Source: Clostridia bacterium
Lineage (GTDB): Bacteria; Bacillota; Clostridia; Oscillospirales; CAG-272
DNA: 54,202 nt
Direction of reading: 5' to 3'
NCBI GenBank assembly: GCA_017395715.1
Contig: JAFQNZ010000211.1
Location: 1-54,202 of the forward strand
The position numbers were made by a program, and so were the translations under genes. Below the pieces are notes generated by a model. It had not been told where the DNA came from and did not search any database. It worked only from the letters and a program-made list of their open reading frames with translations. This document shows, piece by piece, positions 1 to 50,652 of this stretch (positions are counted from its first letter, which is position 1; each line of letters starts with the position of its first letter).

Positions 1-141
1 CTTTATGGAAAGCAGAGAGCTTCATCAGGCAGAGGTTTGGGAAATGATGACCGTCCACATCAATCAAGCCGATGCGCCGATTCATTACGACCTCCATTTC
101 ATTCAGCCGCAAAGGTAATCGACTACCTCATCGTACCGCTC
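1..141. repeat. Terminal overlap, identical to 54062-54202 (circular closure, probably an assembly overlap)
   Basis: Both ends compared base by base (ctttatggaaagcagagagc...catcgtaccgctc) with no mismatch. Confidence 0.95.
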
Positions 142-1942: not shown

Positions 1943-2426
1943 CGTTCTTACCCTCCGTTTCTGCATCCCTCTGAGCAATCAGGGGTGCGTGGTACTTTTC
2001 CTCTGCTCTCTGTCGAGCATCCACGGCGACATCCAATTTGGCGTACCTGCCGAGAAATACTCGTTTGTTGTGTACGTTGATGTAGGCAATCCACATCTTG
2101 CGGTCAGCGTCCCAACTGATACCCTTATGACCGCTCGTGTTGTTCTTCGGCGGGGTCTGCGTTCCGATCACCTGAAAATTCGTGTGATACTGCATATTGG
2201 TCTCCACCTGCTTCGCCATGTTCTGCGGAATGGTTTTCGAGCCAATGGTGCGAACCCGTTCCCGATGAATGCAACCGCAGGAGCGTGTGGGCTGAAAAGC
2301 CTTGGTGAGACTCGTTGCCCGAATCTCCTTGCGCTTTCCGCAGTCACACAGACAGATGACATAGCCCTTACGGGAAGCATTACCTTCCACCACGAGCCGA
2401 CCGAATCTTCTGTCTTTCAGGTTCAT
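1932..2426 (-). CDS. AP2-domain DNA-binding protein
   Basis: GISWDADRKMWIAYINVHNKRVFLGRYAKLDVAVDARQRAEEKY resembles an AP2/ERF-type domain. The start at 2426 overlaps the upstream stop (TGATG). Confidence 0.6.
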   Translation of the reverse strand: MNLKDRRFGRLVVEGNASRKGYVICLCDCGKRKEIRATSLTKAFQPTRSCGCIHRERVRTIGSKTIPQNMAKQVETNMQYHTNFQVIGTQTPPKNNTSGHKGISWDADRKMWIAYINVHNKRVFLGRYAKLDVAVDARQRAEEKYHAPLIAQRDAETEGKNDVG

Positions 2427-3829
2427 CAGGCATCCTCCTCGAAGTAACAACCGTTTTTGCGGTAGGTCGAACAGCGTTTCTTGTAGCTCTTGACAAGAAA
2501 GCCAATGTCATCTACGAAGTCATAAGCAATGGGCGGCTTCTTACCCTCATGAGTACGGGCGATTCTGCCGATGGACTGCGTAATGACTGCGTAGTCTTTT
2601 TGTGGAGTGGTCAGAAAAAGCCGTTCCAAACAGGGAATATCCAAACCCTCTTTGGCGAGGGAGTAGGTAGCGAACAGATACCGCTTGCGGCCTGTGCGCA
2701 TATCCTCGATAGCCTGTTCCCGCTCTGCTTTTCCCTTCTTGGTGGTCATCTTTCCGCTTATCATGACCGACATTTCCCGCATGGAGCGAGGAAGCGTATT
2801 CATGAGAGCTTCGAGGTGATTGAGCCTGTCGGAGAGAATCAGGCAGGGGTGGTCGGCTTCTGCGACAATCCACGAGCCGATGTAGTGGGTGCGTTCCTCG
2901 TTCTCGCACAAGTAGCTGATGAGCTTGGTGTAGTTGATCGTTCCGTCTGTATTCAGGCATTCACGACTCAGCTTCACGCCTGTACCAAGGGGCTTGATAC
3001 CCACCTGCATGATCTTGTCCTTGACCGCTTCATCAGGTACGGTGTGAACCACATGACCGAGAAGGGCGTAAGTGGCAGGAATCATGCCGTCTGCACGGTG
3101 AACTGTTGCGGATAGACCGTATTTATGCCTTGCGGATAGGCTGTTGAGCACCTTGAAGAACTGCGTCATGGCGGTGGGCGTTCCCGCTACACGGTGACAC
3201 TCATCCACGATGATTACATCCCACAGGTCTTTGTACTGAGCCAAATCCAATCGGCACATGGTCTGAATGGTGGCAAAGGTGATACCCTGACCGATATTCA
3301 CCTTACCTTCGGTGATCGTACCAATGAGCCGTTTGTCCATGTACCGCTCGGCTCGTGCTTTGCTCTGATTGAGCAGGTCTGCCGTATGGGTCAGCCACAG
3401 AGCACGTCTACCGTAGCGCATCACAAGGGCAATGCCCATTTGGGTTTTTCCGCTTCCTGCGGGGCTTTGGAGTATGCCGTAGCGACATTCCTTCACCACG
3501 TTCACCGCATCGTCCTGATAGGAGTAGAGCGGTACTTCACCGCCATAGGCGATCTCAACGGGTTCAGGGAACTCGCTCGTACAAGGATGACCCCATAGGA
3601 AGTGCTGAACGTCTCGGAGAATGCCGAAAGGGAGAATCAGCGCATTTCCTCGGCGTTCGTAGAGGGAAAGGGTCTTGGGAGTGTTGCCCACCCAGAAGTG
3701 CATCCGCACCTTCTTGGCGTATTCGGGGTTGGGAATGACGAGGTGTTCTTCACACCAATCGTTCAAGGCTTGGGAAGGATTTTCGACCGTGATGGTCGCA
3801 CCGATGCTCACTCGCATAGCTTCACCCAT
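2426..3829 (-). CDS. Superfamily-2 DEAD/DEAH-box helicase
   Basis: Walker A SPAGSGKT and Walker B DECH, with C-terminal helicase motifs (TTPQKDYAVITQSIGRIAR). The start could also be 3817. Confidence 0.8.
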   Translation of the reverse strand: MGEAMRVSIGATITVENPSQALNDWCEEHLVIPNPEYAKKVRMHFWVGNTPKTLSLYERRGNALILPFGILRDVQHFLWGHPCTSEFPEPVEIAYGGEVPLYSYQDDAVNVVKECRYGILQSPAGSGKTQMGIALVMRYGRRALWLTHTADLLNQSKARAERYMDKRLIGTITEGKVNIGQGITFATIQTMCRLDLAQYKDLWDVIIVDECHRVAGTPTAMTQFFKVLNSLSARHKYGLSATVHRADGMIPATYALLGHVVHTVPDEAVKDKIMQVGIKPLGTGVKLSRECLNTDGTINYTKLISYLCENEERTHYIGSWIVAEADHPCLILSDRLNHLEALMNTLPRSMREMSVMISGKMTTKKGKAEREQAIEDMRTGRKRYLFATYSLAKEGLDIPCLERLFLTTPQKDYAVITQSIGRIARTHEGKKPPIAYDFVDDIGFLVKSYKKRCSTYRKNGCYFEEDA

Positions 3830-4206: not shown

Positions 4207-4435
4207 ACTTGACCTCGTTCAGAATGTCGAGTACCCCTTCACCGATTATCCCTCGATTCGGCTGTGAGCCGATCACTCCCTTGGCTTCATCCACCAGATC
4301 GAGAATGGATTTGATGCGATCTTCGTAGAACTCAGCCGCATCGTCTCCCATGTACTCCCTCAGCAGGTCGATGAAGTGACGGTCTCTTGAAACTACCTCC
4401 CTTTTACCGTCTTTCAATCTCAGCATTGTTGCCAT
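4199..4435 (-). CDS. Hypothetical protein
   Basis: 78-aa ORF with GAGGA RBS, translationally coupled to the downstream gene. Confidence 0.6.
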   Translation of the reverse strand: MATMLRLKDGKREVVSRDRHFIDLLREYMGDDAAEFYEDRIKSILDLVDEAKGVIGSQPNRGIIGEGVLDILNEVKYE

Positions 4436-4450
4436 GGGCTTTTCCTCACA

Positions 4451-4468
4451 CAGCCCCTAACGGGGCTG
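4451..4468 (-). promoter_or_regulatory. DGR target-site hairpin downstream of VR1 (7-bp stem, 4-nt loop)
   Basis: cagcccc-taac-ggggctg lies 2 nt past the stop codon. No U-tract follows. It has a covarying twin at 12411-12428. Confidence 0.7.
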
Positions 4469-4470
4469 AT

Positions 4471-5067
4471 TCACAGATGAAAGATGCAAGCGGGCGCGAG
4501 ACCGTGGGCACCGTAGGCACTGAGGCTGTCCACAGTACCGTCAGAATAGACAAGGCGCACAGAGTGGGCGTTCCCAGAGTAAGGAGTGCCGCAATGCCAA
4601 GGCGTACACGTCCACATCCACTCATCAAACAGCGGAACGATCTTACGGTACTTGCGGTAGAGATCGCAGGAGAGAATGCCGATCTTGTCCACGCACTTAC
4701 CATAGGCCGTATCGCCGTTATCGGCGGTGAGATCGGATTCAAAGGGAAGCAGGTCGTTCTCATCCATCAGGGAAAGGAACTCGGTGTTGAGCTTCTTGCG
4801 AGCACGGGACTTCGCCCAGTTGTTACAACCGTTGGGGTCGAACGCTTCCTCAGCGATGGGCTTGGCAGTCATGCACAGGACACCGCCCTGTTCGAGACCA
4901 AGCCGAATGAACTCGATACCGTGATACATGAAGTGCTCGCCATCCTTGATCTTGGAGAAGTCAGGACGCTTGGCATTCTGAATGGCGGTCTTGATCTTAT
5001 CGAGGGTCTTGGACGCGCTATCTTCGGATTCATTGATGAGGTTTTCGATACTCTCAATCAGATTCAT
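4471..5067 (-). CDS. DGR target protein 1 (198 aa, variable C-type-lectin-like C-terminus)
   Basis: The C-terminus ...GTPYSGNAHSVRLVYSDGTVDSLSAYGAHGLAPACIFHL is encoded by VR1. The TR translation is TPNSGNANNVRLVNSDGTVNNNNANNANGLAP. Confidence 0.85.
   Translation of the reverse strand: MNLIESIENLINESEDSASKTLDKIKTAIQNAKRPDFSKIKDGEHFMYHGIEFIRLGLEQGGVLCMTAKPIAEEAFDPNGCNNWAKSRARKKLNTEFLSLMDENDLLPFESDLTADNGDTAYGKCVDKIGILSCDLYRKYRKIVPLFDEWMWTCTPWHCGTPYSGNAHSVRLVYSDGTVDSLSAYGAHGLAPACIFHL
4486..4589 (-). repeat. DGR variable repeat VR1 (remote target), including the IMH-like 3' end at 4486-4503
   Basis: 4492-4589 aligns with TR 11814-11911. In my hand alignment all 14 mismatches fall where the TR coding strand has A. 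Confidence 0.85.
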
Positions 5068-5070
5068 GAT

Positions 5071-5232
5071 TCATACTCCTTCCGGTGCTTTGTGACCATA
5101 CCGCTTCTGATACCATTCCTGAAAGGCTTTCTCATGAGCGGGGTCTTTGTAATACTCCAATATGGTATCGACCATACCGAGCAGGGGTCTTGCGAGGTCG
5201 GCTACCTGAGACGAACTAAGTGGATTACCCAT
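5071..5232 (-). CDS. Hypothetical protein (53 aa)
   Basis: Start moved to the ATG at 5232, preceded by AAGGAG. It overlaps the cro-like stop by 8 nt. Confidence 0.5.
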   Translation of the reverse strand: MGNPLSSSQVADLARPLLGMVDTILEYYKDPAHEKAFQEWYQKRYGHKAPEGV

Positions 5233-5434
5233 CTTTCTTCTCCTTCGCTTCAAGGTCGGAGAGAATCTGCTTGACCATTTCAAGCACCCTCGTAGCTTTC
5301 GGGTAGGTGTTCACACCACTCAAAATCTGAGACATTTCGGGCGGCTGAACTACGATACCTCGCTCTCGCAGTTCAAAGATGAGCCGCACCTGTGTCATAC
5401 CGAGGGCTTTCATTCTCTCTCGAATCTGGAACAT
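5225..5434 (-). CDS. Cro-like HTH regulator (first gene of the leftward early operon)
   Basis: 69 aa. MKALGMTQVRLIFELRERGI...SQILSG is HTH-like. It is divergent from the CI-like gene. Confidence 0.6.
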   Translation of the reverse strand: MFQIRERMKALGMTQVRLIFELRERGIVVQPPEMSQILSGVNTYPKATRVLEMVKQILSDLEAKEKKDG

Positions 5435-5618: not shown

Positions 5619-5647
5619 ATTGTAAGTCTAAAATCCGGATTTGTCAA
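5619..5647 (-). promoter_or_regulatory. Candidate sigma70-type early lytic promoter directed toward the cro-like gene
   Basis: Minus strand reads TTGACA (5647-5642), 17-bp spacer, TACAAT (5624-5619). The perfect palindrome AAATCCGGATTT (5631-5642) lies in the spacer. Confidence 0.45.
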
Positions 5648-5695: not shown

Positions 5696-6085
5696 ATGAA
5701 CTTTGCCGACAATTTGAAGCGAATCTGTACTGAACGAGGAACTTCCCCGACCGCCCTTTTGAAGTCGATGGGCGTAGCCACATCCAAAGTTGCGATGTGG
5801 AATAGCGGCTCTCTCCCCAAGCAGGAAATGCTCATCCGTCTCGCCAAGGAGCTTGATTGCTCTGTCATGGACTTCTTTGCTGATGACGCTGATCTCGCCG
5901 CACAGAATATCAATAAGACCAACGCTGATGCTGAACCCAAGAACGAGGATGAATCTGACATTCTCCGAATCTTCCGTTCTCTTTCAAGGAGAGCCAAGCA
6001 TGAGTTCATGTCTATGGCCTACGAATTTGAGACACGCGAAGAATTGACAGGGGATAACGCAAACGATCAATCGTCTGTTATCTAA
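5696..6085 (+). CDS. CI-like XRE-family HTH repressor
   Basis: N-terminal NFADNLKRICTERGTSPTALLKSMGVATSKVAMWNSG is an XRE-type HTH. The RBS is GAGAGGAG. Confidence 0.75.
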   Translation: MNFADNLKRICTERGTSPTALLKSMGVATSKVAMWNSGSLPKQEMLIRLAKELDCSVMDFFADDADLAAQNINKTNADAEPKNEDESDILRIFRSLSRRAKHEFMSMAYEFETREELTGDNANDQSSVI

Positions 6086-6172: not shown

Positions 6173-7723
6173 ATGACGAAAGCTGTGATCTATGCTCGTT
6201 ATTCGAGCCACAATCAGAGAGAAGAATCCATCGAAGGCCAGATTCGAGAGTGTCAAGACTTCGCCGCTCGAAATGATATGACCATCGTTGGTGAATATAT
6301 TGATCGTGCGATTTCGGGTAAAACCGACAATCGTGCTGAATTTCAGCGCATGATACGAGACTCGGAACGTGGACACTTCCAAGTCGTGCTTGTCTATGCC
6401 ATTGACCGCTTCGCTCGCAATCGCTACGATTCAGCTATCTACAAGGCCAAGCTGAAAAAGAACGGAGTCAAGGTCTTCTACGCAAAACAGTATATCCCTG
6501 ACACACCCGAAGGTATCATCCTCGAATCCGTCATGGAGGGCTATGCTGAATACTACTCTCAAAACCTCGCCATCCACATCAAACGAGGAATGAAGGAAAA
6601 CGCCCTTCAATGCAAGGTTACAGGGGGAACAACCCCTCTCGGCTACCGTATTGGAGAGAACAAGACCTATGAGATCGACCCCGCAGGTGCGAAGATCATC
6701 CAAGAGATATTCCAAATGTACGCTGATGGTTCATCGGCTACCCAGATCGTCAACTACTGTAATGAACAGGGCTACCGCACCGCTCGTGGTGGTAAGTTCA
6801 ATAAGAACAGCCTGAGAACGATACTCCTCAATGATAAGTACATCGGCATTTACCGCTACGAAGATATTGAGGTCGAAGACGGAATCCCTGCGATCATTAC
6901 CAAGGAGCTTTTCGAGAAGGTACAGGCCATGTTCCACCACAACCATGCGGCAAGGGCAAAGACCAAGGCCAACGCAGACTACCTCCTCACAACCAAACTG
7001 TTCTGCGGACATTGCGGCTCGAACATGGTTGGTGAGAGCGGTACTGCTCGTAATGGTGATACTTATTACTACTATAAGTGTTCTAATCGTAAGAAGAATC
7101 ATTCCTGCACCAAGAAGACTGAGAAAAAGGATTGGATTGAGGAGATCGTAGTTCGTCATACTGTCTCCACCGTCCTTACAGATGAGAGCATTGAACTCAT
7201 CGCTACCAAAGCAATCGAACTCATGGAGAAGGAGTTTGCCGAAAATTCGGTCTTGACCGCTTTAGAGCAATCCTTGAAGGATGTAGAGAAGCGAATCAAG
7301 AATCTCCTTGATCTCATGGAACAAGGTATCGTCACACCAAGCACGAGAGAACGTCTCCTCGAATTGGAATCTCAGAAAAGTGACCTTGACCAACGAATTG
7401 CCCGTGAGAGCATGAAAAAACCGCCCTTGTCGAAAGAGCGGATTATCCATTGGCTCATGACGTTCAGGGGCGGTAATGTAAAAGATGTAGAATATAGGCG
7501 TAGAGTGATCGACACTCTCGTCAATTCCATCTATGTTTTCGATTCAGAAGACGGCGATGGAAGGAAAATCGTCTTCACATTCAATGTTTCTGGCCAGAAC
7601 ACTTCTACTATCCATGTTTCGGATATTGCGTGTTTCGCTCCACCATACGGTGCAAATCCGAACCACTTCTTCTTTGTGAAGAACGTCTTCGGGTTTGTGA
7701 AAGAAATAGAGGTCACGGCATGA
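6173..7723 (+). CDS. int: Large serine recombinase (phage integrase)
   Basis: Resolvase-type N-terminus AVIYARYSSHNQ...IEGQ and YAIDRFARN, followed by a recombinase domain and a Cys-rich zinc-ribbon region (CGHCG...YYYKCSNRKKNHSC). 516 aa. Confidence 0.9.
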   Translation: MTKAVIYARYSSHNQREESIEGQIRECQDFAARNDMTIVGEYIDRAISGKTDNRAEFQRMIRDSERGHFQVVLVYAIDRFARNRYDSAIYKAKLKKNGVKVFYAKQYIPDTPEGIILESVMEGYAEYYSQNLAIHIKRGMKENALQCKVTGGTTPLGYRIGENKTYEIDPAGAKIIQEIFQMYADGSSATQIVNYCNEQGYRTARGGKFNKNSLRTILLNDKYIGIYRYEDIEVEDGIPAIITKELFEKVQAMFHHNHAARAKTKANADYLLTTKLFCGHCGSNMVGESGTARNGDTYYYYKCSNRKKNHSCTKKTEKKDWIEEIVVRHTVSTVLTDESIELIATKAIELMEKEFAENSVLTALEQSLKDVEKRIKNLLDLMEQGIVTPSTRERLLELESQKSDLDQRIARESMKKPPLSKERIIHWLMTFRGGNVKDVEYRRRVIDTLVNSIYVFDSEDGDGRKIVFTFNVSGQNTSTIHVSDIACFAPPYGANPNHFFFVKNVFGFVKEIEVTA

Positions 7724-7740
7724 GCCGAGACCTCTTTCTT
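7701..7740. terminator. Bidirectional intrinsic terminator between convergent int and endolysin
   Basis: Stem gaggtcacggc / gccgagacctc (one mismatch) with loop atga. It is flanked by aagaaata on the left and tttctt on the right. Confidence 0.6.
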
Positions 7741-7741
7741 G

Positions 7742-9469
7742 TTATTCGGGGATTTTCAGGACTTCGCCCGTATGAATGATCGTGTTCTCGATTTCATTCA
7801 GAGCGGCGATTTCCGTCCACCGCCTACCGTCACCGAGCAGGTTCTTGGCAATCTTCCACAGGCTATCGCCACTCTGCACCACATAGCTCGCGTAGGTGGG
7901 CTGTACGGCATTCTCAGCGTACTTCCTACCCGTGAACCAAGACAGCGGTACAGCACCCGTCAGACGGTTCAGGTCGATGCGGTGGTCGATACCCGGCGCA
8001 CCCGCAACCTTGGAGTAGCCATTGCTCGTGTACTGATGCAGATAAATCTTATCGGTGAAAGCCGCGCTCTTGATCTCCCAACCCGTGTACGTTCCCTCGT
8101 TCGCACCCCAGTTGGCAATCCACAGGGTATCGAAGATGGATTCGATCTCACGGTAGGAGGTACGCCAACGATAATCGCCCGTGTACTGACCGATCACCTT
8201 TACGCCGTGCTCACGCAGACGCTTGACATATACCTTGATGAGTTCGCGTTCGACCTCGTAGGTCATGCCATCGGCAAGCTCCTCGGTATCGAGGTAGTAT
8301 ACCTTCGGGTCATAAGGAGCACAGGCGGCGTACATGGCATCGGCCTGTTCGACTGCATCGGCTTCGGATTTGAGTTTCAGATAGTCATACACCGCAAACG
8401 GAAAGCCGCGCTTTTTCAGTTCGACCGCCCACCCCGCAAACTTGGTGTCATCCTTTCCATTCACTCGCGCACGGAGAATGGCGAAGTCATTACCCGCACA
8501 GAACTTGTCCATGTCGATAGCTTCCTGATACACGGAAATATCAGGGATGAAACCGTGAATCGGGTACACAGTCTCATCAGGAACGGTGATCTCAGGCTGT
8601 TCGGGTTCGACCTTCTCAGGCTCGTCCTGGGGCTTGGAATAAGCGGTCAGAGCCGCCATGGACTCCTTGCCGAACTTCCCGTCCACCTCGATCTTCGCGG
8701 CGGTCTGGAACGCTTTCACGCCCTTCTCTGTGTTCTTACCGAACTTACCATCGACCTCACCACAGTCAAAGCCGAGGGCATTCAGGCGGGTTTGCAGTTC
8801 CACCACATCATCGCCCGTCATCATCGGAGAGGTGCGTTTGAGCGTCCTGTCACCGAGCTTCCGAGTGGTAGGCTTGGCTTCGGGCGTGACTGCGGGAGTA
8901 TTATCGGTCACAGAGGAAGCATCACCATAATCAATGAGGGAAGCAGGGAGATAAGCCCACTCAGTCCAAGGCCGCTTCGAGACCTTAGTCTTCACAACGC
9001 CATAGGCGAAACCCTGAGCTTCAACGGCATAGCCATTGCCTACATACACACCAACGTGACCCGACTTGAAAAGCAGTATACCGGGAACATCGGGCATGGT
9101 AGCGATCTTACCGTTCTTACAGCCCTTGGATTTCAGCCAAGAAAGCATACCATTCGCTCCCTTGTCGGGGCATCCGTTCGAGCCATACTTATTCTTGTAT
9201 TCAGCACCGCCGTTCAGGTATTCGAGAACACCTTCGCCGCCGTTTGTCCAGAAGAAGCCTTTAATCAGGCCGATGCAGTCCATGCAGATATGACGGGCGG
9301 CGATATGCTTCTCGTAGGTAGAAGTACGGCTACTGCCGTAATGGGTCGGGTACTGCTTGGTCTTGCTTTTCAGCAGGGACTTGGTACAGATATAAACGCA
9401 CGTTCCGTACCAATACTTCTGTCCTACCATAGAGAGGACGAATGCGATAAACTGTGCTACTTTGAACAT
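7742..9469 (-). CDS. Multidomain endolysin (NlpC/P60, PG_binding_1, GH25 muramidase, LysM)
   Basis: GQKYWYG...CMDCIGLIKG...GHVGVYVG (NlpC/P60). GDDVVELQTRLNALGFDCGEVDGKFG (PG binding). GFIPDISVYQ...DFAILRA (GH25). YVVQSGDSLWKIA...LKIP (LysM). ATG at 9469 follows AAAGGGGTG. Confidence 0.85.
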   Translation of the reverse strand: MFKVAQFIAFVLSMVGQKYWYGTCVYICTKSLLKSKTKQYPTHYGSSRTSTYEKHIAARHICMDCIGLIKGFFWTNGGEGVLEYLNGGAEYKNKYGSNGCPDKGANGMLSWLKSKGCKNGKIATMPDVPGILLFKSGHVGVYVGNGYAVEAQGFAYGVVKTKVSKRPWTEWAYLPASLIDYGDASSVTDNTPAVTPEAKPTTRKLGDRTLKRTSPMMTGDDVVELQTRLNALGFDCGEVDGKFGKNTEKGVKAFQTAAKIEVDGKFGKESMAALTAYSKPQDEPEKVEPEQPEITVPDETVYPIHGFIPDISVYQEAIDMDKFCAGNDFAILRARVNGKDDTKFAGWAVELKKRGFPFAVYDYLKLKSEADAVEQADAMYAACAPYDPKVYYLDTEELADGMTYEVERELIKVYVKRLREHGVKVIGQYTGDYRWRTSYREIESIFDTLWIANWGANEGTYTGWEIKSAAFTDKIYLHQYTSNGYSKVAGAPGIDHRIDLNRLTGAVPLSWFTGRKYAENAVQPTYASYVVQSGDSLWKIAKNLLGDGRRWTEIAALNEIENTIIHTGEVLKIPE

Positions 9470-9492
9470 GATAATCACCCCTTTCTTCGTTC

Positions 9493-9536
9493 AATAAAAG
9501 CCGCCGACAACGCCGAGGTCAACGCTGTCGGCGGCG
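9493..9536 (-). terminator. Intrinsic terminator between holin and endolysin
   Basis: 10-bp stem gccgccgaca / tgtcggcggc. On the minus strand it is followed by TTTTATT. Confidence 0.55.
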
Positions 9537-9545
9537 AAATCATTT

Positions 9546-9791
9546 TTACTTGTTCTCAGCGTTCAGCTGGGCGAGCACTTCATCAGCCTTGATAGCGTTC
9601 TTGGTGAAGGAGTTGTTCTTCCACCAAGCCCACAGGGATGCGCCGAGGGTGAAAGCGTAGGACAGGATTTCCACGACCTGTTCATCCTCGATGGGCAGGG
9701 GATTCTTACCGCTCAGGGTAAGAGCCTGATTGATGAGTGCCACGATGAGCACGATGGTACGAATGATGGTGTCCTTCTTCACAGTATTCAT
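9546..9791 (-). CDS. Holin
   Basis: 81 aa with two hydrophobic segments and a WAWWKNNSFTK motif seen in Gram-positive phage holins. It sits directly upstream of the endolysin. Confidence 0.75.
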   Translation of the reverse strand: MNTVKKDTIIRTIVLIVALINQALTLSGKNPLPIEDEQVVEILSYAFTLGASLWAWWKNNSFTKNAIKADEVLAQLNAENK

Positions 9792-9809: not shown

Positions 9810-10127
9810 TTACAGTCCGAGCTTGGTCAGGGCGAGAGTCACAAGAGCGGTCACGATGACCGTGATCGCAACGGTGACTACGGTGTCCCATCGCTTACTC
9901 GGCTTTTCCTTGATTTCTTCCAGATCGGTAGCAAGACCATCGACCTTCTTACCAATGTCCTTCTGCTCATGAGCCATAAGCTGAACAGACATAGCAAGGT
10001 CTTTCACGCTCTCTGCGAGGGATTTCAGGTCATTGATCTGATTGAAAGCGGTCTTGATTTGTTCAGTATGCCGAGTGACCCGCTCATCCAGTTCGACATA
10101 CTTTTCCGTCAACTGCTCGTGCGTCAT
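9810..10127 (-). CDS. XhlA-like lysis-associated membrane protein
   Basis: N-terminal coiled coil plus a C-terminal TM segment (WDTVVTVAITVIVTALVTLALTKLGL). It sits upstream of the holin. Confidence 0.55.
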   Translation of the reverse strand: MTHEQLTEKYVELDERVTRHTEQIKTAFNQINDLKSLAESVKDLAMSVQLMAHEQKDIGKKVDGLATDLEEIKEKPSKRWDTVVTVAITVIVTALVTLALTKLGL

Positions 10128-10618
10128 TCATCTGCTACCTCCGTCCAGCCGTATACACCCGGCTCCCACACGTTGCCATCAACGTCCGAGACCCACTTCT
10201 TGTCATTGTGGGTGGTCTTCGCGCCCTTGTCGTAAGCATCGTGAGCACCCACGGGCTGACTCCAAGCGGGGTATTCCACGGAGGGGTCTCCCACTTCAAC
10301 CCACAGGGAGGGGCTTACGTCAGGAGTCCAATCAGCCTGAGTGGTGTGTGCCTGAACGCAACGATAGAGCTTTTTGGCAGAACCTTCGGTTTCACCACCG
10401 TAGGTACGAAGCTGACCCACGGTAGCATTGACACCCACAACCCACGGGGCAAAGGTGTCGATATTCTCGGTCGCGGTCACATCATCGATCATGCCGTTTT
10501 CAGCCATGGTCACGAACGCGATGGAGGAGGTGAGTTCACCCTGCGTAGCTACCTGATCGGCGTGCTGACCTGCGGCCTGAGCACGCGCTACGCGCAGTTC
10601 AATCGGTACTTTAATCAT
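10124..10618 (-). CDS. Putative carbohydrate-binding (CBM5/12-like) protein
   Basis: Two W/Y-rich segments: YRCVQAHTTQADWTPDVSPSLW and HNDKKWVSDVDGNVWEPGVYGW. ATGA overlap with the RT stop. Confidence 0.4.
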   Translation of the reverse strand: MIKVPIELRVARAQAAGQHADQVATQGELTSSIAFVTMAENGMIDDVTATENIDTFAPWVVGVNATVGQLRTYGGETEGSAKKLYRCVQAHTTQADWTPDVSPSLWVEVGDPSVEYPAWSQPVGAHDAYDKGAKTTHNDKKWVSDVDGNVWEPGVYGWTEVADE

Positions 10619-11721
10619 GGTTCTTTCCTTCCTTTCAGATCATAAAAGTAGTGTTCCATGCGTTGCCGTTGGTAGAAGGTGTCACCTCGCTTTGCATTCG
10701 CTCGCCAAGCGATGAAGCTATTGCGTGTTGTTCCTTCTGCGAGCAAACCCGCACGTTCTTTTGCCATGAGTTTCTTCATCTTGCGTCTCTGTTTGCCGAG
10801 CTTCTTACCGTTCATGTACCGCAGGATTCTTCCTGTATCGGCGGCAATGACGAACCGCCAATTCATCATGCGGACACCCTGCTTCAAGGGGTAGAGGGTC
10901 GTTTTCTTATTGAGTTCCAAACCCAACGCTTGAACCTTCTCCTCAATCCGCTTACGGCACTCCTGCAAATAAGACTTGTCAGGATGTATCAGCACAAAAT
11001 CATCCATGTAGCGCAGGTAGTGCTTGATTCTCAGCCGTTCCTTGATGTAATGGTCGAGATCGTCAAGCACCGCCAATTCCACCAACTGACTGATCTGACT
11101 TCCGAGTCCGATACCTGTATCGCCCTCGAAGGAATCAATCACATTGCAAACTGCCTGTGCCGCTCTATCATCCGAAATACGCTTACGAACCGCATTCTTT
11201 GCGACTTCGTGCGAGGTTGAAGGGAAAAACTTCCGAATGTCGCATTTGAGTACCCAACCTTCCGTACCATGCTCCAAGTAATACCTGCGCAGGTGAGCGG
11301 TCATGCGGTCGAGGGTGAAGTCTGTACCCTTTCCCGTCTGACACGCGCCGTTGTCATGTATCAAATGCTCCACCATGTCATTGTATAGACCTGCCATACA
11401 CAGAGCCTTTTGAAACTGACGGTCTCTCAGGCGGGTCGCTACGATCTCCCTTTTCTTCGGTTCATAGACTGTGAAGTGCTGATAGGGACTGATTCTGTAT
11501 TTGCCTTTGAGCAAGTCCTGCCGTAAGTGATAGGTGTTCTTTAGGCCGTTGGCTTCATACCCAACCACACTATCCTTCCACCGCACGTTGCGGCAGGACT
11601 TCTTCAAGGCTTTGTACAGATTTCCGAACTCTATGGCTTTATCAAAATATTGGTCATTCATAAAGGGGTCATGGGTGCTCGGTAGCAAGGCCACCCCGCA
11701 AGGTGCTTGCGTCACCCACAT
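10615..11721 (-). CDS. DGR reverse transcriptase
   Basis: RYMDDFVLI (YxDD box) and IGLGSQISQ ([I/L]GxxxSQ, DGR-RT hallmark). ATG at 11721 is preceded by GAAAGGAGCG. Confidence 0.9.
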   Translation of the reverse strand: MWVTQAPCGVALLPSTHDPFMNDQYFDKAIEFGNLYKALKKSCRNVRWKDSVVGYEANGLKNTYHLRQDLLKGKYRISPYQHFTVYEPKKREIVATRLRDRQFQKALCMAGLYNDMVEHLIHDNGACQTGKGTDFTLDRMTAHLRRYYLEHGTEGWVLKCDIRKFFPSTSHEVAKNAVRKRISDDRAAQAVCNVIDSFEGDTGIGLGSQISQLVELAVLDDLDHYIKERLRIKHYLRYMDDFVLIHPDKSYLQECRKRIEEKVQALGLELNKKTTLYPLKQGVRMMNWRFVIAADTGRILRYMNGKKLGKQRRKMKKLMAKERAGLLAEGTTRNSFIAWRANAKRGDTFYQRQRMEHYFYDLKGRKEP

Positions 11722-11807
11722 TTTTCGCTCCTTTCAGAGACAGGATAATCACTCCTTGTGTGAGTGTACTGCTTTCGGCTCGAAGCCTACTCGAATCGGA
11801 CTTTCTC

Positions 11808-11935
11808 ACAATCGGGCGCGAGACCGTTGGCATTGTTGGCATTGTTGTTGTTCACAGTACCGTCAGAATTGACAAGGCGCACATTGTTGGCGTTCCCAGA
11901 GTTAGGAGTGCGCAACCACCAATTCGCCGCCGAAC
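11808..11935 (-). repeat. DGR template repeat (TR, 11814-11935) with IMH*-like 3' end
   Basis: The coding-strand sense is AAC/AAT-rich (…AAC AAC AAC AAT GCC AAC AAT GCC AAC GGT CTC GCG CCC GAT TGT). It has no start codon and lies between avd and the RT. Confidence 0.9.
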
Positions 11936-11954
11936 TCTCGCTGGTAAATAGTCA

Positions 11955-12377
11955 TTACCCTAATTGGAGTTTAGCCGTGTATCGCGTTTTATCAGACTTC
12001 ATCCAATTTTTCAGTCTGTCATCGGCTTTCAGGACAAGACCCGTCCAGTATTCCACCCGATTAGACTCAATCCCGAATGAGGTATAGGCGAGATCAATCA
12101 GGGAAAGCAGAGCTTCCAAATGACTGTGCGCCTGTACCTGCTGATTTCGGCGATACTCGAAATCGCTGACCGTATCAACGAACACGGCGTTCGCTCTGCG
12201 GACGCAAGTAAGAGCGGCTATACACTCGTCTACAATCGGCTTCGCCATGACCCAACGCGAGGACTTCGGAAACACCTTTTCCGACCTGCAAATCTGAATC
12301 GTGTACGCGCCGAGATTGGCTATGTCATTCAGCACTCCGAGCGTACCGTCACTTCTATCTCCTGTTCTAACACTCAT
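11955..12377 (-). CDS. avd: Avd-like DGR accessory protein (helical bundle)
   Basis: About 140 aa, predicted helical and basic, positioned between the target gene and TR. ATG at 12377 follows AGGAAGG. An alternative TTG lies at 12410. Confidence 0.6.
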   Translation of the reverse strand: MSVRTGDRSDGTLGVLNDIANLGAYTIQICRSEKVFPKSSRWVMAKPIVDECIAALTCVRRANAVFVDTVSDFEYRRNQQVQAHSHLEALLSLIDLAYTSFGIESNRVEYWTGLVLKADDRLKNWMKSDKTRYTAKLQLG

Positions 12378-12410
12378 ATCCTTTACCTTCCTTTGAGATT
12401 GATCTATCAA

Positions 12411-12428
12411 CTGCCCCTAACGGGGCAG
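12411..12428 (-). promoter_or_regulatory. DGR target-site hairpin downstream of VR2
   Basis: ctgcccc-taac-ggggcag has the same loop as 4451-4468, with a compensatory A:T to T:A swap in the stem. Confidence 0.7.
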
Positions 12429-12437
12429 ATTACGGGA

Positions 12438-13568
12438 TTACACGATGGTGCAAGCGGGCGCGAGACCGGAGGCAGAGTAGGCATAGTAGTTGGACACAGT
12501 ACCGTCAGAACGGACAAAGCGCACAATGACGGCGTACCCAGAGCTAGGAGAGCGCAACCACCAATTCGCCGCCGAACCGTCACGATACTTGATGCGGTCA
12601 GCATTGCCAGCACCTTCATAGAAGGGGAACAGCACCGTACCATCGTTCACATCATGACTGCCGAAAATCTCAGCACGGCTCGCAATGTAGAACTCATCGT
12701 TCAGGGTATAAGCCGTACCCTTGGTGATGGTGCTGTCGGGAGCTTCATAGATGTTGTTCGCCGAGCACGGCAGAACCACCTTACCCACCACAGCGAGGAA
12801 GTCCTGATCGAGACCGTTCTTGTAACCCGCCAGAGAGGTCAGCCAAGACGGAGGACGGTCGAACTTGGTCTGCGGAGTCCACACGCTACCTGCGGCGGCA
12901 GAACTATTCAGGAACTGACGCATCGCGCTCTCCTTGTAGTTGTTACTGCCGTAAGAAACGCGCTGAATGCTGTTGATTGCACCCTCACCGAACGTACCGA
13001 GGTTCGTGCCGCCGCTACCTGCGGTAATGGCAACAGATTCAGTAGCCGTGTTCGTGGTACGATTGGCGAAGGACTGCACTTTCAGAGAAGTGATCGCCGT
13101 GCTCTCGTAGCCGTTGATGCGAAGCTGACCACCCGCAGGAACAGCCTGAGTGAGCGTGAACTGATAAGTACCCGCCGCCCAACCACCGTATGCGGAAGCG
13201 AGAATCACGTTGTAAGTACCCGCCGCCAGCTGAGTCTCGGCGTAGTAGAACGCTTCGGGTGCATCGAACTGAGTACCGGGGAGCAGGTCGTGTTGCTGAA
13301 TGGTCATGGTGTGGGCATTCTCGTCATGAACGGATTTCAAATAATCATGCGCCACAACATCAAACAGGCGAGTGCCGTATACGCTGTGATTGACTGCCAG
13401 CTGAGTACCCACAGGCAGAATGTCCTTCGCAATGCCCGAACGCACCGCTTTCTGAATACCTTCCCAAGTGGAAATGTCCACCTGACTGCCGACCGCCTTA
13501 GCGATCTTTGCAAGGTTCTCGTTCATAACGTCCATCTGTTCCTTGGTGGGGAGAAAGAGCTTACTCAT
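12438..13568 (-). CDS. DGR target protein 2 (putative receptor-binding tail fibre protein)
   Basis: 376 aa and last gene of the tail module. The C-terminus ...ANWWLRSPSSGYAVIVRFVRSDGTVSNYYAYSASGLAPACTIV is encoded by VR2. Confidence 0.85.
   Translation of the reverse strand: MSKLFLPTKEQMDVMNENLAKIAKAVGSQVDISTWEGIQKAVRSGIAKDILPVGTQLAVNHSVYGTRLFDVVAHDYLKSVHDENAHTMTIQQHDLLPGTQFDAPEAFYYAETQLAAGTYNVILASAYGGWAAGTYQFTLTQAVPAGGQLRINGYESTAITSLKVQSFANRTTNTATESVAITAGSGGTNLGTFGEGAINSIQRVSYGSNNYKESAMRQFLNSSAAAGSVWTPQTKFDRPPSWLTSLAGYKNGLDQDFLAVVGKVVLPCSANNIYEAPDSTITKGTAYTLNDEFYIASRAEIFGSHDVNDGTVLFPFYEGAGNADRIKYRDGSAANWWLRSPSSGYAVIVRFVRSDGTVSNYYAYSASGLAPACTIV
12450..12577 (-). repeat. DGR variable repeat VR2 (cis target), including the IMH-like end at 12450-12467
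   Basis: 12456-12577 aligns with TR 11814-11935. There are 17 mismatches at TR-adenine positions and one non-adenine mismatch (TR 11876 g vs VR 12518 a). Confidence 0.9.
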
Positions 13569-13571
13569 GAT

Positions 13572-14045
13572 TTAATCCTCCTCGATGTAGAGATAGCCAT
13601 TTTCAAGGCCGAAGCGATAAGCCGTGCCATCGCCATCGTCCACAATGGTCTTGTTCTGACCCATGAAAAACAGGGTGCTATTGCGAAGCAGACATTCCAC
13701 CATGGAGTTCGCCTTGAAGAAGTTGGTGTCGAGTGCTTCGCCGTTGAGGGTCTTCGCCGCAATCGCCGCACCGTTCAGCGTGAAGGTGTCTCCACGGTTG
13801 AAAGCCGCCGTTGCGTAGAATTTCAGGTTTTCGGTCGCGGTGTTCTCGGTGGTCAGCCTGTGAACCATGCCGCTCTTGGAGTAGTTACACTCCAACACAC
13901 AAGCCGCATTCACATCAGCCGCACCAAAGCCCGACCCTTCCTGCTGATAAGCGGTCGTGTCCTCAATGGTGGAGACCACGCCGTTTACCTTGTAGGTTCT
14001 GCCCCCGGAAGGGGGAATTTCATCTTTGTAATGCTTAACCGCCAA
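13572..14045 (-). CDS. Tail-fibre-associated hypothetical protein
   Basis: 157 aa. TTG start at 14045 is preceded by AGGAGGG. Function is suggested by position only. Confidence 0.5.
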   Translation of the reverse strand: MAVKHYKDEIPPSGGRTYKVNGVVSTIEDTTAYQQEGSGFGAADVNAACVLECNYSKSGMVHRLTTENTATENLKFYATAAFNRGDTFTLNGAAIAAKTLNGEALDTNFFKANSMVECLLRNSTLFFMGQNKTIVDDGDGTAYRFGLENGYLYIEED

Positions 14046-14442
14046 TGTTCTTCCCTCCTAACGTGAATTGAAGTTTCGGTATTCCGGCCTTCTGACCATG
14101 GAATGCCTTGTAGAGAAGCAGATGGTTGTTCTCGATAGCGTTCAGTTCGCTCGCCGTCCAACCCGCACCATTGCTCGCATAAAGCCGCATGGACTTCGCA
14201 CCTGAAGGAGAGTAGCAATTCTCCAACAGGGCTTTCGTGGCGTTGACCACGTTGTTGAAGAAGGAAACTCGCGGATAGCCCGACATACTCGCGCTCTCCA
14301 AGGAAGGAGCGGTGTAGTCTGCATACATCGTCTTGCTCAGGGCAAGCAGATATTCGATGTTTCCCTTGATGCGGTTGTAATCAGGGTTGATGTTGAAATA
14401 ATCGCCGTCAACCCAATTCGTTTTCGGTGTTACCCAAGCCAT
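14035..14442 (-). CDS. Tail-module hypothetical protein
   Basis: 135 aa, translationally coupled (TAATG). The N-terminus is MAWVTPKTNWVDGDYFNINPDYNRIKGNIEYL. Confidence 0.5.
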   Translation of the reverse strand: MAWVTPKTNWVDGDYFNINPDYNRIKGNIEYLLALSKTMYADYTAPSLESASMSGYPRVSFFNNVVNATKALLENCYSPSGAKSMRLYASNGAGWTASELNAIENNHLLLYKAFHGQKAGIPKLQFTLGGKNIGG

Positions 14443-16672: not shown

Positions 16673-17053
16673 TCACTCTCCCACATCGATGATGTTCGCC
16701 TTGCAGTCCAAGTAATACTTGGGTTTGTTGGTGATGGGGTCAACCATGAACGGCTGTGCCGTTCGATCACCAACGTAGAACTTGCGCGTAACCCAATCAT
16801 TCGTAACCATGTCGATGTATCGGACAGAGAACGTGAACTTCTCAAACTCTTGGAGCATTCGAGACCACACTTCGGGAGTCAGCACACTCCAAGTCAGTTC
16901 GATCTTGCCCATGTCTCTGCCGATACGCTCGCCACGCATTACGCCGTCAGCCGTTCTCGCACTATCCACAATCGTAGAGACCTGTTGCAGTCCGCTACTC
17001 TTGCTGGGGTACGGGAACGCTATGCCGTTAATGTAAATGAATCCATTAGCCAT
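16673..17053 (-). CDS. Small tail component (Dit position)
   Basis: ATG at 17053 overlaps the tape-measure stop by 8 nt. 126 aa. Confidence 0.45.
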   Translation of the reverse strand: MANGFIYINGIAFPYPSKSSGLQQVSTIVDSARTADGVMRGERIGRDMGKIELTWSVLTPEVWSRMLQEFEKFTFSVRYIDMVTNDWVTRKFYVGDRTAQPFMVDPITNKPKYYLDCKANIIDVGE

Positions 17054-20000
17054 GACTGAACGCCCCCATTCCCAGATCATAGCCACGATTTCGGGCTATC
17101 TTCTGCTGATTTTCGTAGATTTTCTCGCCGTCAAGGTAGACATTGATGCGAGCGGGTTCACCGCCGTCATTGCCACCCATTGCCGCAGATACGGCCTGAT
17201 AGACACCGATGGAAACAGCGTCTACAATCTGATCGTTGTTCGCAACAGCGGTACGACCGCCGATGCTACCAACCAACTCAGGCCCGGCTTCTCGTGCCAC
17301 GAACATCTGACCCGTAGGAACGAAACCGCCGTCCTTCTTGAAGGTGATGCTATCGCCGCTTACCGTACCCGTGAAAGTGACCTTCGTACCCGCACTCTTG
17401 GCGAGCTTGATATAGCAGGTCTTCGTCCAACTGCTCGATACAAAAGAACTCAGGCTTGTCCAACCGTCCTTCGCAAGAGAGATACTTACCGAACCGCTCT
17501 CGCTCGTACTGTTGTCCTTACACCATTGAGAAATGCTCTTGTTCGCCCAGTTACCCTTCGCCAAGTCAACAGACTTCGTAACCTTACCACCGAAGATGGA
17601 GTCAAGCAAAAGCCATGCGGCAACCGTAGCGACACCGCTCAGGAAGCCCGTTTTTAGTCCGATAGACTTCGTAACAGAGCCGCCCATTTTGTTGTTGGTA
17701 ATCCAAGAGCCAATAGAACTCCACGCAGAGGTGTTGGTTACTCCGATACCCTTGGTTACATCGCCGCCCATCTTATCGGTAGAAATCCAGTTCGCAACCG
17801 TGCTCCACCCCTTCTTGATGAGTTCGACCATGGGTTGCAGGACAGGAAGATTGACCGAGAGCAGACCTTCCTTCAAGCCCGTAGCCGAATCCGAACCAAT
17901 GGTGGTGAAACTACCCTTGGTGAACAAAGCTACAATCTTGCTCTTTACGTTGGTACTGAACCACCCGCTGACAGGAGACCAGTTCGTCTCGGTGTCGTTC
18001 TTCGCACCGAGGAAAGCCGAGACAATCCCGCTACCGAGATTCGTGAACAGCGTTCCAATCGGAGAGGAAACGATCTTCGAGAACCAATCGCTCACAGGAC
18101 TCCATGCGCTCTTACTGTCATCCTTCGCACCCGTCATCTTACTGATGATCGTAGTACCGAGGGTAGAGAACAGAGTGCCGATGGGAGAACTGACGATCTT
18201 ACTGAACCACCCGCTGACAGGAGACCAGTTCGTCTCGGTGTCGTTCTTCGCACCGAGGAAGTAGCTGATGATATTCGCAGTAAGCGTGGAGAACTTGCTG
18301 TTGGTGGGGTCGGTCACGGTCGTGCCAAACCATCCACTCATCGGAGACCACGTTTCCTGCACATCATCCTTGGTGTCTTGGAACAACTGACTTACATCCG
18401 CATTCATTCCCGTGAACTTGCTCACGATGATGTTGATGAAGTTCTGGAACCAAGCAGGGAGATTCGTCCAAGTGTCTTTCAGCTTCGTACCGAGCGTAGC
18501 AAGACCTGCGAGCAGACCTTCTACGATGTAGATACCAAGCCGCTTGAACAACTCGGAAGGACTGTGTACTTCGTTCTCAGTAGCCGCCGTATCATACGGA
18601 ATACCGAAGATTTCGGCGAGTGCCTTGATAGTGTCATTCATTTCGGTGTCGATACCAAGAATCATGCCATCCACAAGGTCAATACCGAGAGCCTTGAACA
18701 TTGCCGTCATGGTCGAATCATTCTTAGCAAGCGAGATTTCAGTTCCATCCTTCAAAGTCAGAACAATGTCACCCGCTTCATCCTCAATGATACTGGTAGC
18801 ATTACTCATACCGTTGGCGATAACGCTTGTCAGATCATAACCAAGGTTTTCGAGCATGGCTTGTGCTCTCGAAGTCCCGAAGGTTTCAGACAGCGAATTG
18901 TAGAACTGCGTTTGAACTTCCGTACCGAGAATATCCCAATCGGTAAATCCAAATACATTCTTAGCTTCGATCAAGACCTGCTTGTCCTTCTTATCCAAGG
19001 TGCTGTAAAAGACTTCCCAGAACTTTGTATCGAAAGCATTCGCAAGGTCTTCGATAGAGCGATTCTCAATCATCCATTGGTCGCTACTCCACGACTCAAA
19101 GAATCTCTGCATAACAGAGGATTCTCCTGCTTCGATAGCCTTGGGAGAGAAAATCTCCTGTAATGCAGTCAAGAAAGACTGTCTTGCTTTCTCGGTGTCC
19201 GCAGTTACAGCCGCTTCAACGCTACCTGCAACATCAAGTGCGGCAATATCCGCTTCAAGTTGGCGAATAGTCTCATCCATCGACTCAACCATATCGTCAT
19301 TCCCCTGCTTGACATAGAAAGCGCGAAGTTCTTTGGCGGCAACCAAACGACCTTCCATTTCGCCTTGCGCGGTAGTCATGGCATCCGCATAAGACGCTTG
19401 AAGTTCTGTAACCATCGTCTGATACTCACTCAATACATCCTTGAAAGAGTCTCGCGTGAGATCGCTGAGTTTCAGGTCGAGAGTAGAATCGAACTTGCCA
19501 GAAATGCTACCTGTCGTAAGTGCGAGAGAGATATTCGTCAAGGTTTGTTGAATAGCATTCAACAGAACAGATTCACTTGCCGTTAATCCATCCGTCATAC
19601 CCTTGACCATAAGGTCACTCATCTGCTTACCGAGATCATCAATACCGGCTTCGAGGAGTTTATCGGTGCTCATGATATTACCGAGCATATCGGCAACATT
19701 CATGTCTTCACCGTTCACATTCTTCGGAGGTACGATGCTGAATGTAAGCGTCAACTGATTTTCAGATTCATCCAACAACGATTTGATCTTGGGAATCAAA
19801 CCATCTTCGCCCGTAAGCTGATTGGTCAATTCTTCCTTCAAATCAGGGTCAATCTGAGCACCAATTTCGACCTTTTTCAGATTGGCATTGAACAATTCGG
19901 TCGAAACAGACAGAGCTTCCTTTGCGGTTTCAACATTGGCTATAACGCTTCCGACAAGATTGATGCGCGGTTCAATGTCAAACTCGAACAACCCCTTGGC

Positions 20001-49629: not shown

Positions 49630-50652
49630 TTACTTCACAGTCATACGGAACTGCGTAGACTTTTTCTGGTACTTGTCGAGCACACCATCGGCTTTCATGG
49701 CATCTTTGTCGATGGTCGTGGTCTCGGAACGAGCAATCGTCCAAGTGTAGGTCTTGCCCTTGACCTCCACCTTCTTGTCACCATCACGGAACTGCGAAAC
49801 AGCGTGTTCCTTGATGATTTCGCCGATCTCCTTCAACCGCTTTTCCTTATCGGCAAGAGCGGCGGTAGCCTTGTCCACCTCGGCTTTGAGGGTTTCAGCT
49901 TCGGCAATCAGCGCGTCCATGTCGGTATCGGGGGTCAGGTTGTTGGTGCGCAGAGCTTTCAGGATTTCAGCATCCTTCTTCTCATCGAACTCAGGGCTGA
50001 CACCCGTGGCAACGTGCGCATCCCACCATGCCTGAGCCTGAGCGACCATTTCGGCGAAGTTCGGGTAACGCTGAGAAACCTTGAACTCCCTCGTGATCGT
50101 GTTCTTGGCGTTGGGGACGAACGCATCGGGATTCTCGTAATCCTTCGCACTCAGGAAGGAAGCGACCATGATTACGTCATCCACACCGAGCAGGTAGGCA
50201 TAGAGCGCGGCTTGCAGGGCATAATATTCAGGAATGTCATCTGCCCAATCCTCAGACCTCTTGGTGGTCTTGAACTCGATAACTGTATCGGGCTTACCCT
50301 CACCATCCACGAGCAGGGAGTCCCACATACCGCCGAAGACGGGGATATTGTGGAAGAAATCGCCGAAGGTCTTGTTGAAGTAACCCTCGCCGTACACATC
50401 GGTCGGGGTACGCAGGTTGGTCATGACGTAAGCCTTGCGCATATAGGCAATCTGCTTCGGTTCGATGGTCTTACCTGCGATGGTGTAGATGGTGTCCTCG
50501 AAAGGCTTCTGATAGGTCTTGGTGATCTCACACCACATTTCAAAGGGCGTAGACCACGGATTCAGACCGAGGATGGTAGCGAAGCGGGTTGCCGTGATCT
50601 TCTTCGGACGCTTGGGAGGGTCTACGATGATCGACTTATCCTGCCAGATCAT
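49630..50652 (-). CDS. YqaJ-like recombination exonuclease (PD-(D/E)xK) with a coiled-coil C-terminal extension
   Basis: ITATRFATILGLNPWSTPFEMW ... DTVIEFKTTK ... YYALQAALYAYL. Confidence 0.75.
   Translation of the reverse strand: MIWQDKSIIVDPPKRPKKITATRFATILGLNPWSTPFEMWCEITKTYQKPFEDTIYTIAGKTIEPKQIAYMRKAYVMTNLRTPTDVYGEGYFNKTFGDFFHNIPVFGGMWDSLLVDGEGKPDTVIEFKTTKRSEDWADDIPEYYALQAALYAYLLGVDDVIMVASFLSAKDYENPDAFVPNAKNTITREFKVSQRYPNFAEMVAQAQAWWDAHVATGVSPEFDEKKDAEILKALRTNNLTPDTDMDALIAEAETLKAEVDKATAALADKEKRLKEIGEIIKEHAVSQFRDGDKKVEVKGKTYTWTIARSETTTIDKDAMKADGVLDKYQKKSTQFRMTVK

Follow-up and report, generated by a model that had tools for sequence, protein, structure and literature searches.

Contig JAFQNZ010000211.1 of the Clostridia bacterium assembly GCA_017395715.1 (54,202 nt; hereafter the window, meaning the whole stretch that was analysed) carries a reverse transcriptase (RT) gene and a pair of long repeats at the end of a phage tail module, raising the question of whether it encodes a working diversity-generating retroelement (DGR) and which proteins such an element would diversify. 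To our knowledge, DGRs are the only natural system of targeted protein hypermutation known in prokaryotes and their viruses. We put the probability that the element is a complete, functional DGR, with one template repeat (TR) and two targets, at roughly 95%. A first-pass annotation had called a complete DGR here, in the order target with variable repeat (VR), avd, TR and RT, and this call is borne out; the second target gene with its own VR, at 4471-5067, lay outside the coordinates given for the element and was missed. The cassette is encoded on the minus strand, and its three open reading frames (ORFs) are those already annotated, namely target gene 1 (12438-13568, 376 aa), an avd-like accessory gene (11955-12377, 140 aa from its ATG) and the RT gene (10615-11721, 368 aa), with TR (11809-11935) and a non-coding TR-RT spacer (11722-11808) lying between the last two.

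The relationship between TR and the first variable repeat (VR1) provides the primary evidence. An independent repeat finder returned 11809-11935 against 12451-12577 as the sole long direct repeat in the region (127 nt, 85% identity), in agreement with our alignment. The former copy, TR, is non-coding and falls within no long ORF in the target frame, while the latter, VR1, constitutes codons 332-372 at the 3' end of target gene 1. On the coding (minus) strand 18 of the 19 mismatches are at TR adenines, which make up 30 of the 127 nt (Fisher p=4.5e-13), so the substitutions are adenine-specific and not spread evenly over A, C, G and T. The first-pass annotation had recognised the same repeat as 122 nt with 17 of 18 mismatches at A; the adenine bias was real, although five bases at the 3' end and the A->C change at TR position 11812 had been left out. 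Its single exception, C->T at TR 11876 and VR 12518, was exactly reproduced, and its translations of both repeats were correct. Read in the target frame, TR contains 13 AAY codons (Y, pyrimidine), and the variable adenines all occupy positions 1-2 of these codons. Each AAY codon can become 15 amino acids without giving rise to a stop, corresponding to a theoretical diversity of ~2e15 for VR1 (13 codons) and ~1e14 for the second variable repeat, VR2 (12 codons).

VR2 was found via a GC-rich element of 13 nt, GGTCTCGCGCCCG, which is located at 11813-11825 in TR and occurs three times in the window, in TR, VR1 and VR2. The third copy belongs to a repeat of ~103 nt (4487-4589, minus strand) that covers codons ~160-193 of target gene 2 (4471-5067, minus strand, 198 aa). 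Alignment of TR positions 25-123 to 4589-4491 by blastn gave 86% identity, and an adenine-tolerant scan of the window detected exactly three copies, with the next best site retaining 53% of the TR non-adenine positions.

The flanks of the three copies distinguish donor from acceptors. In TR, GGTCTCGCGCCCG is followed by the TR-specific ATTGTG, while the 3' end of VR1 consists of GGTCTCGCGCCCG and CTTGC and is the same in VR2. Among the ten cassettes and 15 VRs sampled from the window and its relatives, the base directly after GGTCTCGCGCCCG (position 11812 in the TR of the window) is A in 10/10 TRs and C in 15/15 VRs, and the sequences diverge beyond it. Judged from sequence, this element together with the divergence behind it appears to be the IMH/IMH* (initiation of mutagenic homing) arrangement that gives a DGR its direction. 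In addition, each VR, though not TR, is followed by a GC hairpin on the minus strand with a 7-bp stem and a 4-nt loop, CTGCCCC-GTTA-GGGGCAG at 12411-12428, 22 nt past the end of homology of VR1, and CAGCCCC-GTTA-GGGGCTG at 4451-4468, 18 nt past that of VR2. The hairpin core GCCCCGTTAGGGGC has two occurrences in 54 kb, one after each VR, a number that 0/100 shuffles reached. The VR of Bordetella phage BPP-1 is directly followed by an analogous hairpin, GCGGGGCC-GAAA-GGCCCCGC, and by this analogy the IMH-like element and the hairpins may serve retrohoming here. Scans of genome and metagenome contig collections with GGTCTCGCGCCCGNTTG returned chance matches in high-GC genomes, and no screened locus matched the window.

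Taking BPP-1 as the prototype, we propose a mechanism in which RNA of TR and the downstream spacer would be reverse-transcribed by a Brt-like RT acting with the Avd-like protein, the RT misincorporating opposite template adenines. The adenine-mutagenised cDNA would then replace the homologous VR, the 3' boundary of the replacement being fixed by the IMH-like element and GC hairpin and its 5' boundary lying where homology ends, and the same TR would serve VR1 at the C-terminus of target 1 and VR2 at the C-terminus of target 2. The RNA intermediate, its priming and the role of Avd may all resemble those of the prototype.

Comparison with relatives, retrieved from IMG/VR viral contigs and by exact-protein look-up, shows a constant template and variable recipients. 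TR is identical (127/127) in seven of the ten cassettes and the other three carry two variant alleles, giving three TR alleles in all, whereas the 12 distinct TR/VR pairs all differ from one another. Pooled over these pairs, 185/195 mismatches are at TR adenines (Fisher p ~1e-118), with 54% of adenines mutated vs 1% of non-adenines. Relative L001, ~96-97% identical to the window overall and with an identical TR, shows 22 differences from it in VR1, with 20 at TR adenines, and VR2 of relative L013 differs from that of the window at 11 positions, all TR adenines. At the protein level, the 12 AAY-templated residues of target 2 have an entropy of 2.4-3.5 bits among 120 homologues (91-96% identical), vs a mean of 0.06 elsewhere, and the 13 most variable residues among 120 homologues of target 1 are precisely the 13 AAY-templated ones. 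In the two targets together these residues reach 2.4-3.6 bits with 11-15 residue types each, and they are the top-entropy positions.

The variant TR alleles allow the direction of information flow to be followed. Relatives L265 (TR at 11634-11760) and L270 (11637-11763) share the markers T79G, G80A, A99T and G104T, and L267 (8780-8906) has T79G and G80A; in codons these are ACT GTG->ACG ATG, AAC->ATC and GCC->TCC. All three genomes carry the same non-adenine marker bases in VR1 as well as in VR2, L265 showing zero non-adenine mismatches, and we conclude that each VR was copied from its resident TR. The markers account for the V->M (index 79/80) and A->S (index 104) polymorphisms seen in both targets, as well as for the change at index 99. 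An L->R polymorphism at index 60 was also considered as a product of TR alleles and rejected, because 5/5 of the R-bearing genomes sampled have CTT in TR. One genome, L259, is discordant, with GTG in TR and ATG in VR1, a disagreement that could stem from recombination between strains or from chimeric assembly. L257, L259 and L269 have the same TR and VR2 and different VR1s, indicating that the two VRs are rewritten independently. Turnover may be slower at VR2 than at VR1, since at least 24 contigs of many samples carry one unchanged VR2 allele, P0003, alongside varying VR1s.

Could these differences be the legacy of an element that no longer works? In such a relic the parts would still be recognisable and no retrohoming would occur in the window genome, the VR differences stemming from past activity or strain recombination. 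The persistence of the P0003 allele, implying that VR2 turnover can be slow, and the existence of DGR-less relatives are both in keeping with this possibility, as is the report that VRs of the two-target phages Lelie, Lagaffe_CP and CP11 show no read-level variation in culture (Gulyaeva et al. 2024, PMC11792537). We nevertheless regard it as improbable. All parts are intact, from the full-length RT with its YMDD motif and the Avd ORF to TR, the IMH-like ends and both hairpins; VR1s differ at 20 or more adenine positions between genomes ~96-97% identical with identical TRs; hundreds of distinct variants occur at 91-96% identity; and both VRs have acquired the markers of the TR alleles.

A second alternative concerns target 2 only, whose C-terminus might resemble TR through paralogy or gene conversion between the two DUF6273 genes, leaving a single true target. 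The two targets do belong to the same domain family, and hhalign matched them to each other in the VR segment only. Against this, VR2 agrees with the non-coding TR at all non-adenine positions (100%), more fully than VR1 does, and its mismatches are 15/15 at TR adenines. Furthermore, VR2 carries the TR-allele markers in L265 and L267, it has an IMH-like end and a hairpin of its own, and its hypervariable residues are the AAY-templated ones. We consider origin by paralogy very improbable, and retain both genes as targets of one template.

The RT itself is preceded by a ribosome-binding site (AAAGGAG, 7 nt upstream of the ATG) and matches Pfam RVT_1 (6e-11) and phrog_1423 'Reverse transcriptase' (8e-91). 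It contains the motifs RYMDDFVLI and GIGLGSQISQ. Its best sequence match in the PDB, 8ub7_A (1e-24), was settled by sequence as Brt of Bordetella phage BPP-1; a literature search for the code 8UB7 found nothing. Aligned to Brt over residues 26-348 (28% identity, E 4e-29), the RT has its YMDD motif in register and its LGSQISQ, which fits [I/L/V]GxxxSQ, placed opposite IGSLTSQ, upholding the first-pass assignment of a DGR RT from the same motifs. R91 and L206 correspond to Brt R74 and I181, residues which we take to influence adenine mutagenesis. Its phage relatives are known DGR phages, namely those of Bordetella, Faecalibacterium (Toutatis, Lelie, Brigit), Roseburia (Shimadzu) and Vibrio (VP585), together with ANMV-1. 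An RT of some other prokaryotic class (group II intron, retron or a defence RT such as Drt3a), with a repeat that has nothing to do with it, can be given next to no credence, since its NCBIfam matches to group_II_RT_mat (71 bits), Drt3a (56) and the retron St85 RT (40) are far under the curated cut-offs of 300, 200 and 235, its best solved-structure match is a DGR RT over the full length, no Rfam family, including those of group II intron and retron RNAs, reaches its gathering score in the window, and the gene has an avd-like neighbour and, 87 nt upstream, an adenine-mutagenised template.

The ORF between target 1 and TR (11955-12377) occupies the position in which Avd had been proposed at first pass, and it does match Avd profiles: phrog_3206 'Avd protein of DGR' at 1.1e-17 over residues 1-135, and NCBIfam DivGenRetAVD at E 0.0029 (17.9 bits, cut-off 80). 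No Pfam match was found for the ORF of the window, while 20/33 members of its family weakly match Pfam bAvd. Comparison with the solved bAvd gave no PDB match by single sequence or by profile, and an hhalign probability of 0.1%. The protein is well conserved, its closest cluster of homologues at 91% identity comprising 102 sequences from the same assemblies. In the compared part of the spacer between TR and RT, L001 and L002 show 100% identity, and folding of the spacer revealed no significant structure (z = -0.75). The window has no Rfam match that reaches the gathering score, so TR and the spacer are not covered by any described RNA family. In BPP-1 the spacer RNA primes cDNA synthesis, and by analogy the spacer is presumed to be the 3' part of the DGR RNA.

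One departure from adenine specificity recurs. The TR codon CTT (11874-11876; Leu, adenine-free) corresponds to 12516-12518 in VR1, where the window has TTT, and to 4552-4554 in VR2. It is replaced by CGT (Arg) in 31/120 homologues of target 1 and 30/120 of target 2 (~25%). Among the sampled cassettes the Arg change is present in six VRs of five genomes, which carry all three TR alleles with TR itself reading CTT. Since the flanking adenine positions differ among the Arg-bearing VRs, a single inherited tract cannot explain CGT. Selection for Arg acting on rare RT errors at non-adenines, site-specific misincorporation and patchy repair are all possible causes, and the recurrent T->G at TR 11875 may represent a site-specific, non-adenine mutagenic step.

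This recurrence is one of several points that weigh against a complete, functional DGR as set out above. Ten of the pooled mismatches are at non-adenines, and in six of these a single site shows the same T->G change, an outcome not expected from the standard mechanism. Activity is read from differences among related assemblies, which may be partly chimeric. The Avd assignment comes from profile matches only, under the curated NCBIfam cut-off, and the protein has no detectable similarity to the solved bAvd. For the RT, NCBIfam offers only the sub-threshold group II, retron and Drt matches, that collection having no DGR RT model. Finally, the receptor-binding role of target 1, discussed below, is positional and its structure model failed.

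Target 1 closes the tail module: the tape-measure gene (17046-22892) and other ORFs of the tail region lie upstream of it, and the holin and endolysin genes come after. Its residues 203-375 match Pfam DUF6273 (7e-17) and the protein also matches phrog_19280 (1e-71); no immunoglobulin (Ig) domains were detected in the Pfam search. An AlphaFold model was unusable, with a mean confidence score (pLDDT) of 46, because the alignment held only sequences 80-100% identical. From its gene position and domain family, target 1 is probably the receptor-binding tip of the tail.

Target 2 could be modelled with confidence (pLDDT 94.7, pTM 0.87), and the model consists of two N-terminal helices and a C-terminal globule that is predicted to be C-type-lectin-like. 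At the sequence level, it matches phrog_9958 (9e-50) and, just under the cut-off, Pfam DUF6273 (E 3e-4). The best solved structure in Foldseek was the IgA peptidase of Thomasclavelia ramosa (E 1e-6), the N-terminal domain of which has a C-type-lectin-like core according to its authors (PMC12237041). Legionella Lcl followed, and then many C-type lectins; matches among viral models included DUF6273, DUF1566, 'receptor binding' and tail-collar fibre proteins. The variable residues would thus be displayed on a C-type-lectin-like scaffold, in target 2 by the model and in target 1 by family assignment (DUF6273) only, and both proteins may bind ligands through them.

The genomic setting of target 2 differs from that of target 1. 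Between it and the cassette are the lysis and lysogeny modules, and it lies in the early/replication region, its neighbours encoding a Holliday-junction resolvase, a helicase, a repressor and a serine recombinase. A promoter-like site (5619-5647, minus strand; TTGACA-17-TACAAT, 11/12 matches) is located upstream of the leftward operon that includes target 2; such sites are as numerous in the region as expected from shuffles, and this one is a consensus match only. A 69-aa ORF upstream of target 2 was considered as Cro and has no profile support. Tentatively, and we think it rather unlikely, target 2 might be no receptor-binding protein of the virion and instead an early-expressed, non-structural hypervariable binder acting in or on the infected or lysogenic cell. 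The idea is prompted by the lack of any signal peptide or membrane segment on inspection, by the place of the gene in a leftward operon with the lysogeny switch on one side and genes for replication/recombination on the other, by the similarly non-structural surroundings of its homologue in phage Toutatis, and by its absence from a DGR-less relative. If true, target 2 could be directed, for example, at a competing element or a host factor that varies.

Two DGR-less relatives, L268 (9695-20828) and L271 (10001-17106), are without avd, TR and RT and have kept target 1 with its hairpin and a VR-like sequence, the latter bearing many non-adenine changes in L271. The target 1 proteins P0236 and P0239, P0239 being that of L268, have identical VR segments. 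At the otherwise syntenic site of target 2, L268 has no such gene, a 53-aa ORF being directly followed by a 78-aa ORF. The DGR and its remote target thus seem to share a pattern of presence and absence. A different situation is seen in L256 (4441-5616 and 10001-10597), whose target 2, identical to P0003, has other neighbours and another RT (391 aa) nearby. No matching TR was found within 20.6 kb in L256, and its VR2 may be orphaned.

The cassette resides in a phage genome. Window positions 1-141 are identical to 54062-54202, which indicates a circularly closed contig of ~54,061 bp, and the terminal junction is confirmed by relative L015. With a serine recombinase at 6173-7723 and a repressor at 5696-6085, the window represents the complete genome of a temperate phage, which is siphovirus-like with gut Clostridia (Oscillospiraceae-type) as host. 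An SPP1-type holin and a GH25/LysM endolysin point to a Gram-positive gut anaerobe. Moreover, target 1 is 100% identical to a protein of an NCBI metagenome-assembled genome annotated as 'Clostridia bacterium', and relatives carry the label Oscillospiraceae. Public gut assemblies are rich in this phage and include hundreds of VR variants. Megablast against a phage collection gave no match for the cassette or for 24 kb of structural genes; this, together with different coordinates and spacings, rules out identity with CP11 or Lelie and sets the lineage apart from described phages.

Several further features of the genome were observed. A CBM_5_12 protein gene (10124-10618, minus strand, 164 aa) overlaps the RT stop codon (ATGA), and its place is taken by a Phage_tail_APC-domain gene in L270, L268 and L271. 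We considered it as a DGR component and rejected it, given that L270 has the same avd-TR-RT arrangement followed by a different gene; it represents a module that can be swapped, situated where the DGR/tail end meets the lysis genes. Long plus-strand ORFs (295-648 aa) at 7739-9592, 12120-14066 and 4387-5274 run antisense to the endolysin, target 1 and target 2, respectively, and are most likely mechanical, because nearly all real genes of the window are on the minus strand. The tape-measure gene (minus strand) has internal repeats, especially at 17833-18404, where self-matches overlap, and its product ranges from 1664 to 1949 aa among relatives. A 1174-aa ORF at 50649-54173 (minus strand) is an unusual fusion of a radical-SAM-like N-terminal region (phrog_9298), a DNA polymerase (phrog_1252) and a C-terminal Erf-like single-strand annealing domain (phrog_155). 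The helicase of L268 (19011-20828, 775 aa) contains intein/Hint domains (PT-HINT, Intein_splicing), and its orthologue in the window (2426-3829, 467 aa) is without them.

Compared with the BPP-1 prototype, the present DGR has the same gene order, in which tail genes are followed by a target with a 3' VR, avd, TR, RT and lysis genes. The RTs are homologous over their full length with YMDD and xGxxxSQ, mismatches are adenine-specific in both, and in both a GC-rich 3' element leads into TR/VR divergence and then, after the VR, a GC stem with a 4-nt loop. Sizes differ to some extent, TR being 127 nt here vs 134 nt in BPP-1 and the spacer ~87 nt vs ~144 nt. The proteins differ as well: RT identity is only 28%, the Avd-like protein has no detectable pairwise similarity to bAvd, and the target in BPP-1 is Mtd, in contrast to the DUF6273-type C-type-lectin-like targets here, where one TR feeds two VRs, the farther one at 7.3 kb. 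The Gram-positive gut anaerobe as host is a further difference.

Closer counterparts exist among phages of gut bacteria. The Faecalibacterium (pro)phages Lelie and CP11 have one DGR with two VRs, located C-terminally in a large and a small DUF6273 target, and variation at both VRs of CP11 was documented by cognate-genome comparison (PMC11792537). The present phage shares with Lelie/Toutatis and CP11 the single RT and TR, the large and small DUF6273 targets and the VR at the C-terminus. In Toutatis the small target, gp24, is likewise remote from the cassette among non-structural genes, and Lelie encodes a serine integrase (phiC31-type), in line with the serine recombinase of the window. Identity to Lelie/Toutatis is 35% for the RT and 29% for the small target, and the TR-VR distances of 0.64 kb (VR1) and 7.3 kb (VR2) here compare with 2.0 and 15.9 kb in Lelie and 1.9 and 22.8 kb in CP11. 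Phages nd4 and nd12 also supply two targets from one TR, and their small targets ranked among the best phage matches of target 2. Their second target is a single DUF6273/C-type-lectin globule flanked by short helices with a 3' VR (Baykov et al. 2023, PMC10743442), an architecture like that modelled for target 2, to which it is 36% (nd4) and 32% (nd12) identical; the nd12 RT is 41% identical. Their first target, 'tentaclin', has an N-terminal C-type-lectin domain with the VR, followed by Ig-like domains (PMC10743442), unlike target 1, where the VR is C-terminal and no Ig domains were detected. Across these described phages RT identity is therefore 35-41% and small-target identity 29-36%. A DGR with one TR and a large and a small DUF6273 target has already been described, and the present phage adds a new lineage to it.

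The finding leaves what is known about DGRs unchanged. Its value lies in providing a clean natural example of one template feeding two unlinked acceptor sites, in which natural TR alleles trace the flow of information and DGR-less relatives are available for comparison. DGRs are being turned into directed-evolution tools. The acceptor module common to both sites, a 13-nt GC-rich element and a GC tetraloop hairpin with a 7-bp stem, would be useful for defining minimal cis requirements. The function of the small target is left open in the papers on Lelie/CP11 and nd4/nd12 (PMC11792537, PMC10743442), and the lineage described here offers a comparative system in which the role of a small, hypervariable target encoded in the non-structural region may be addressed.

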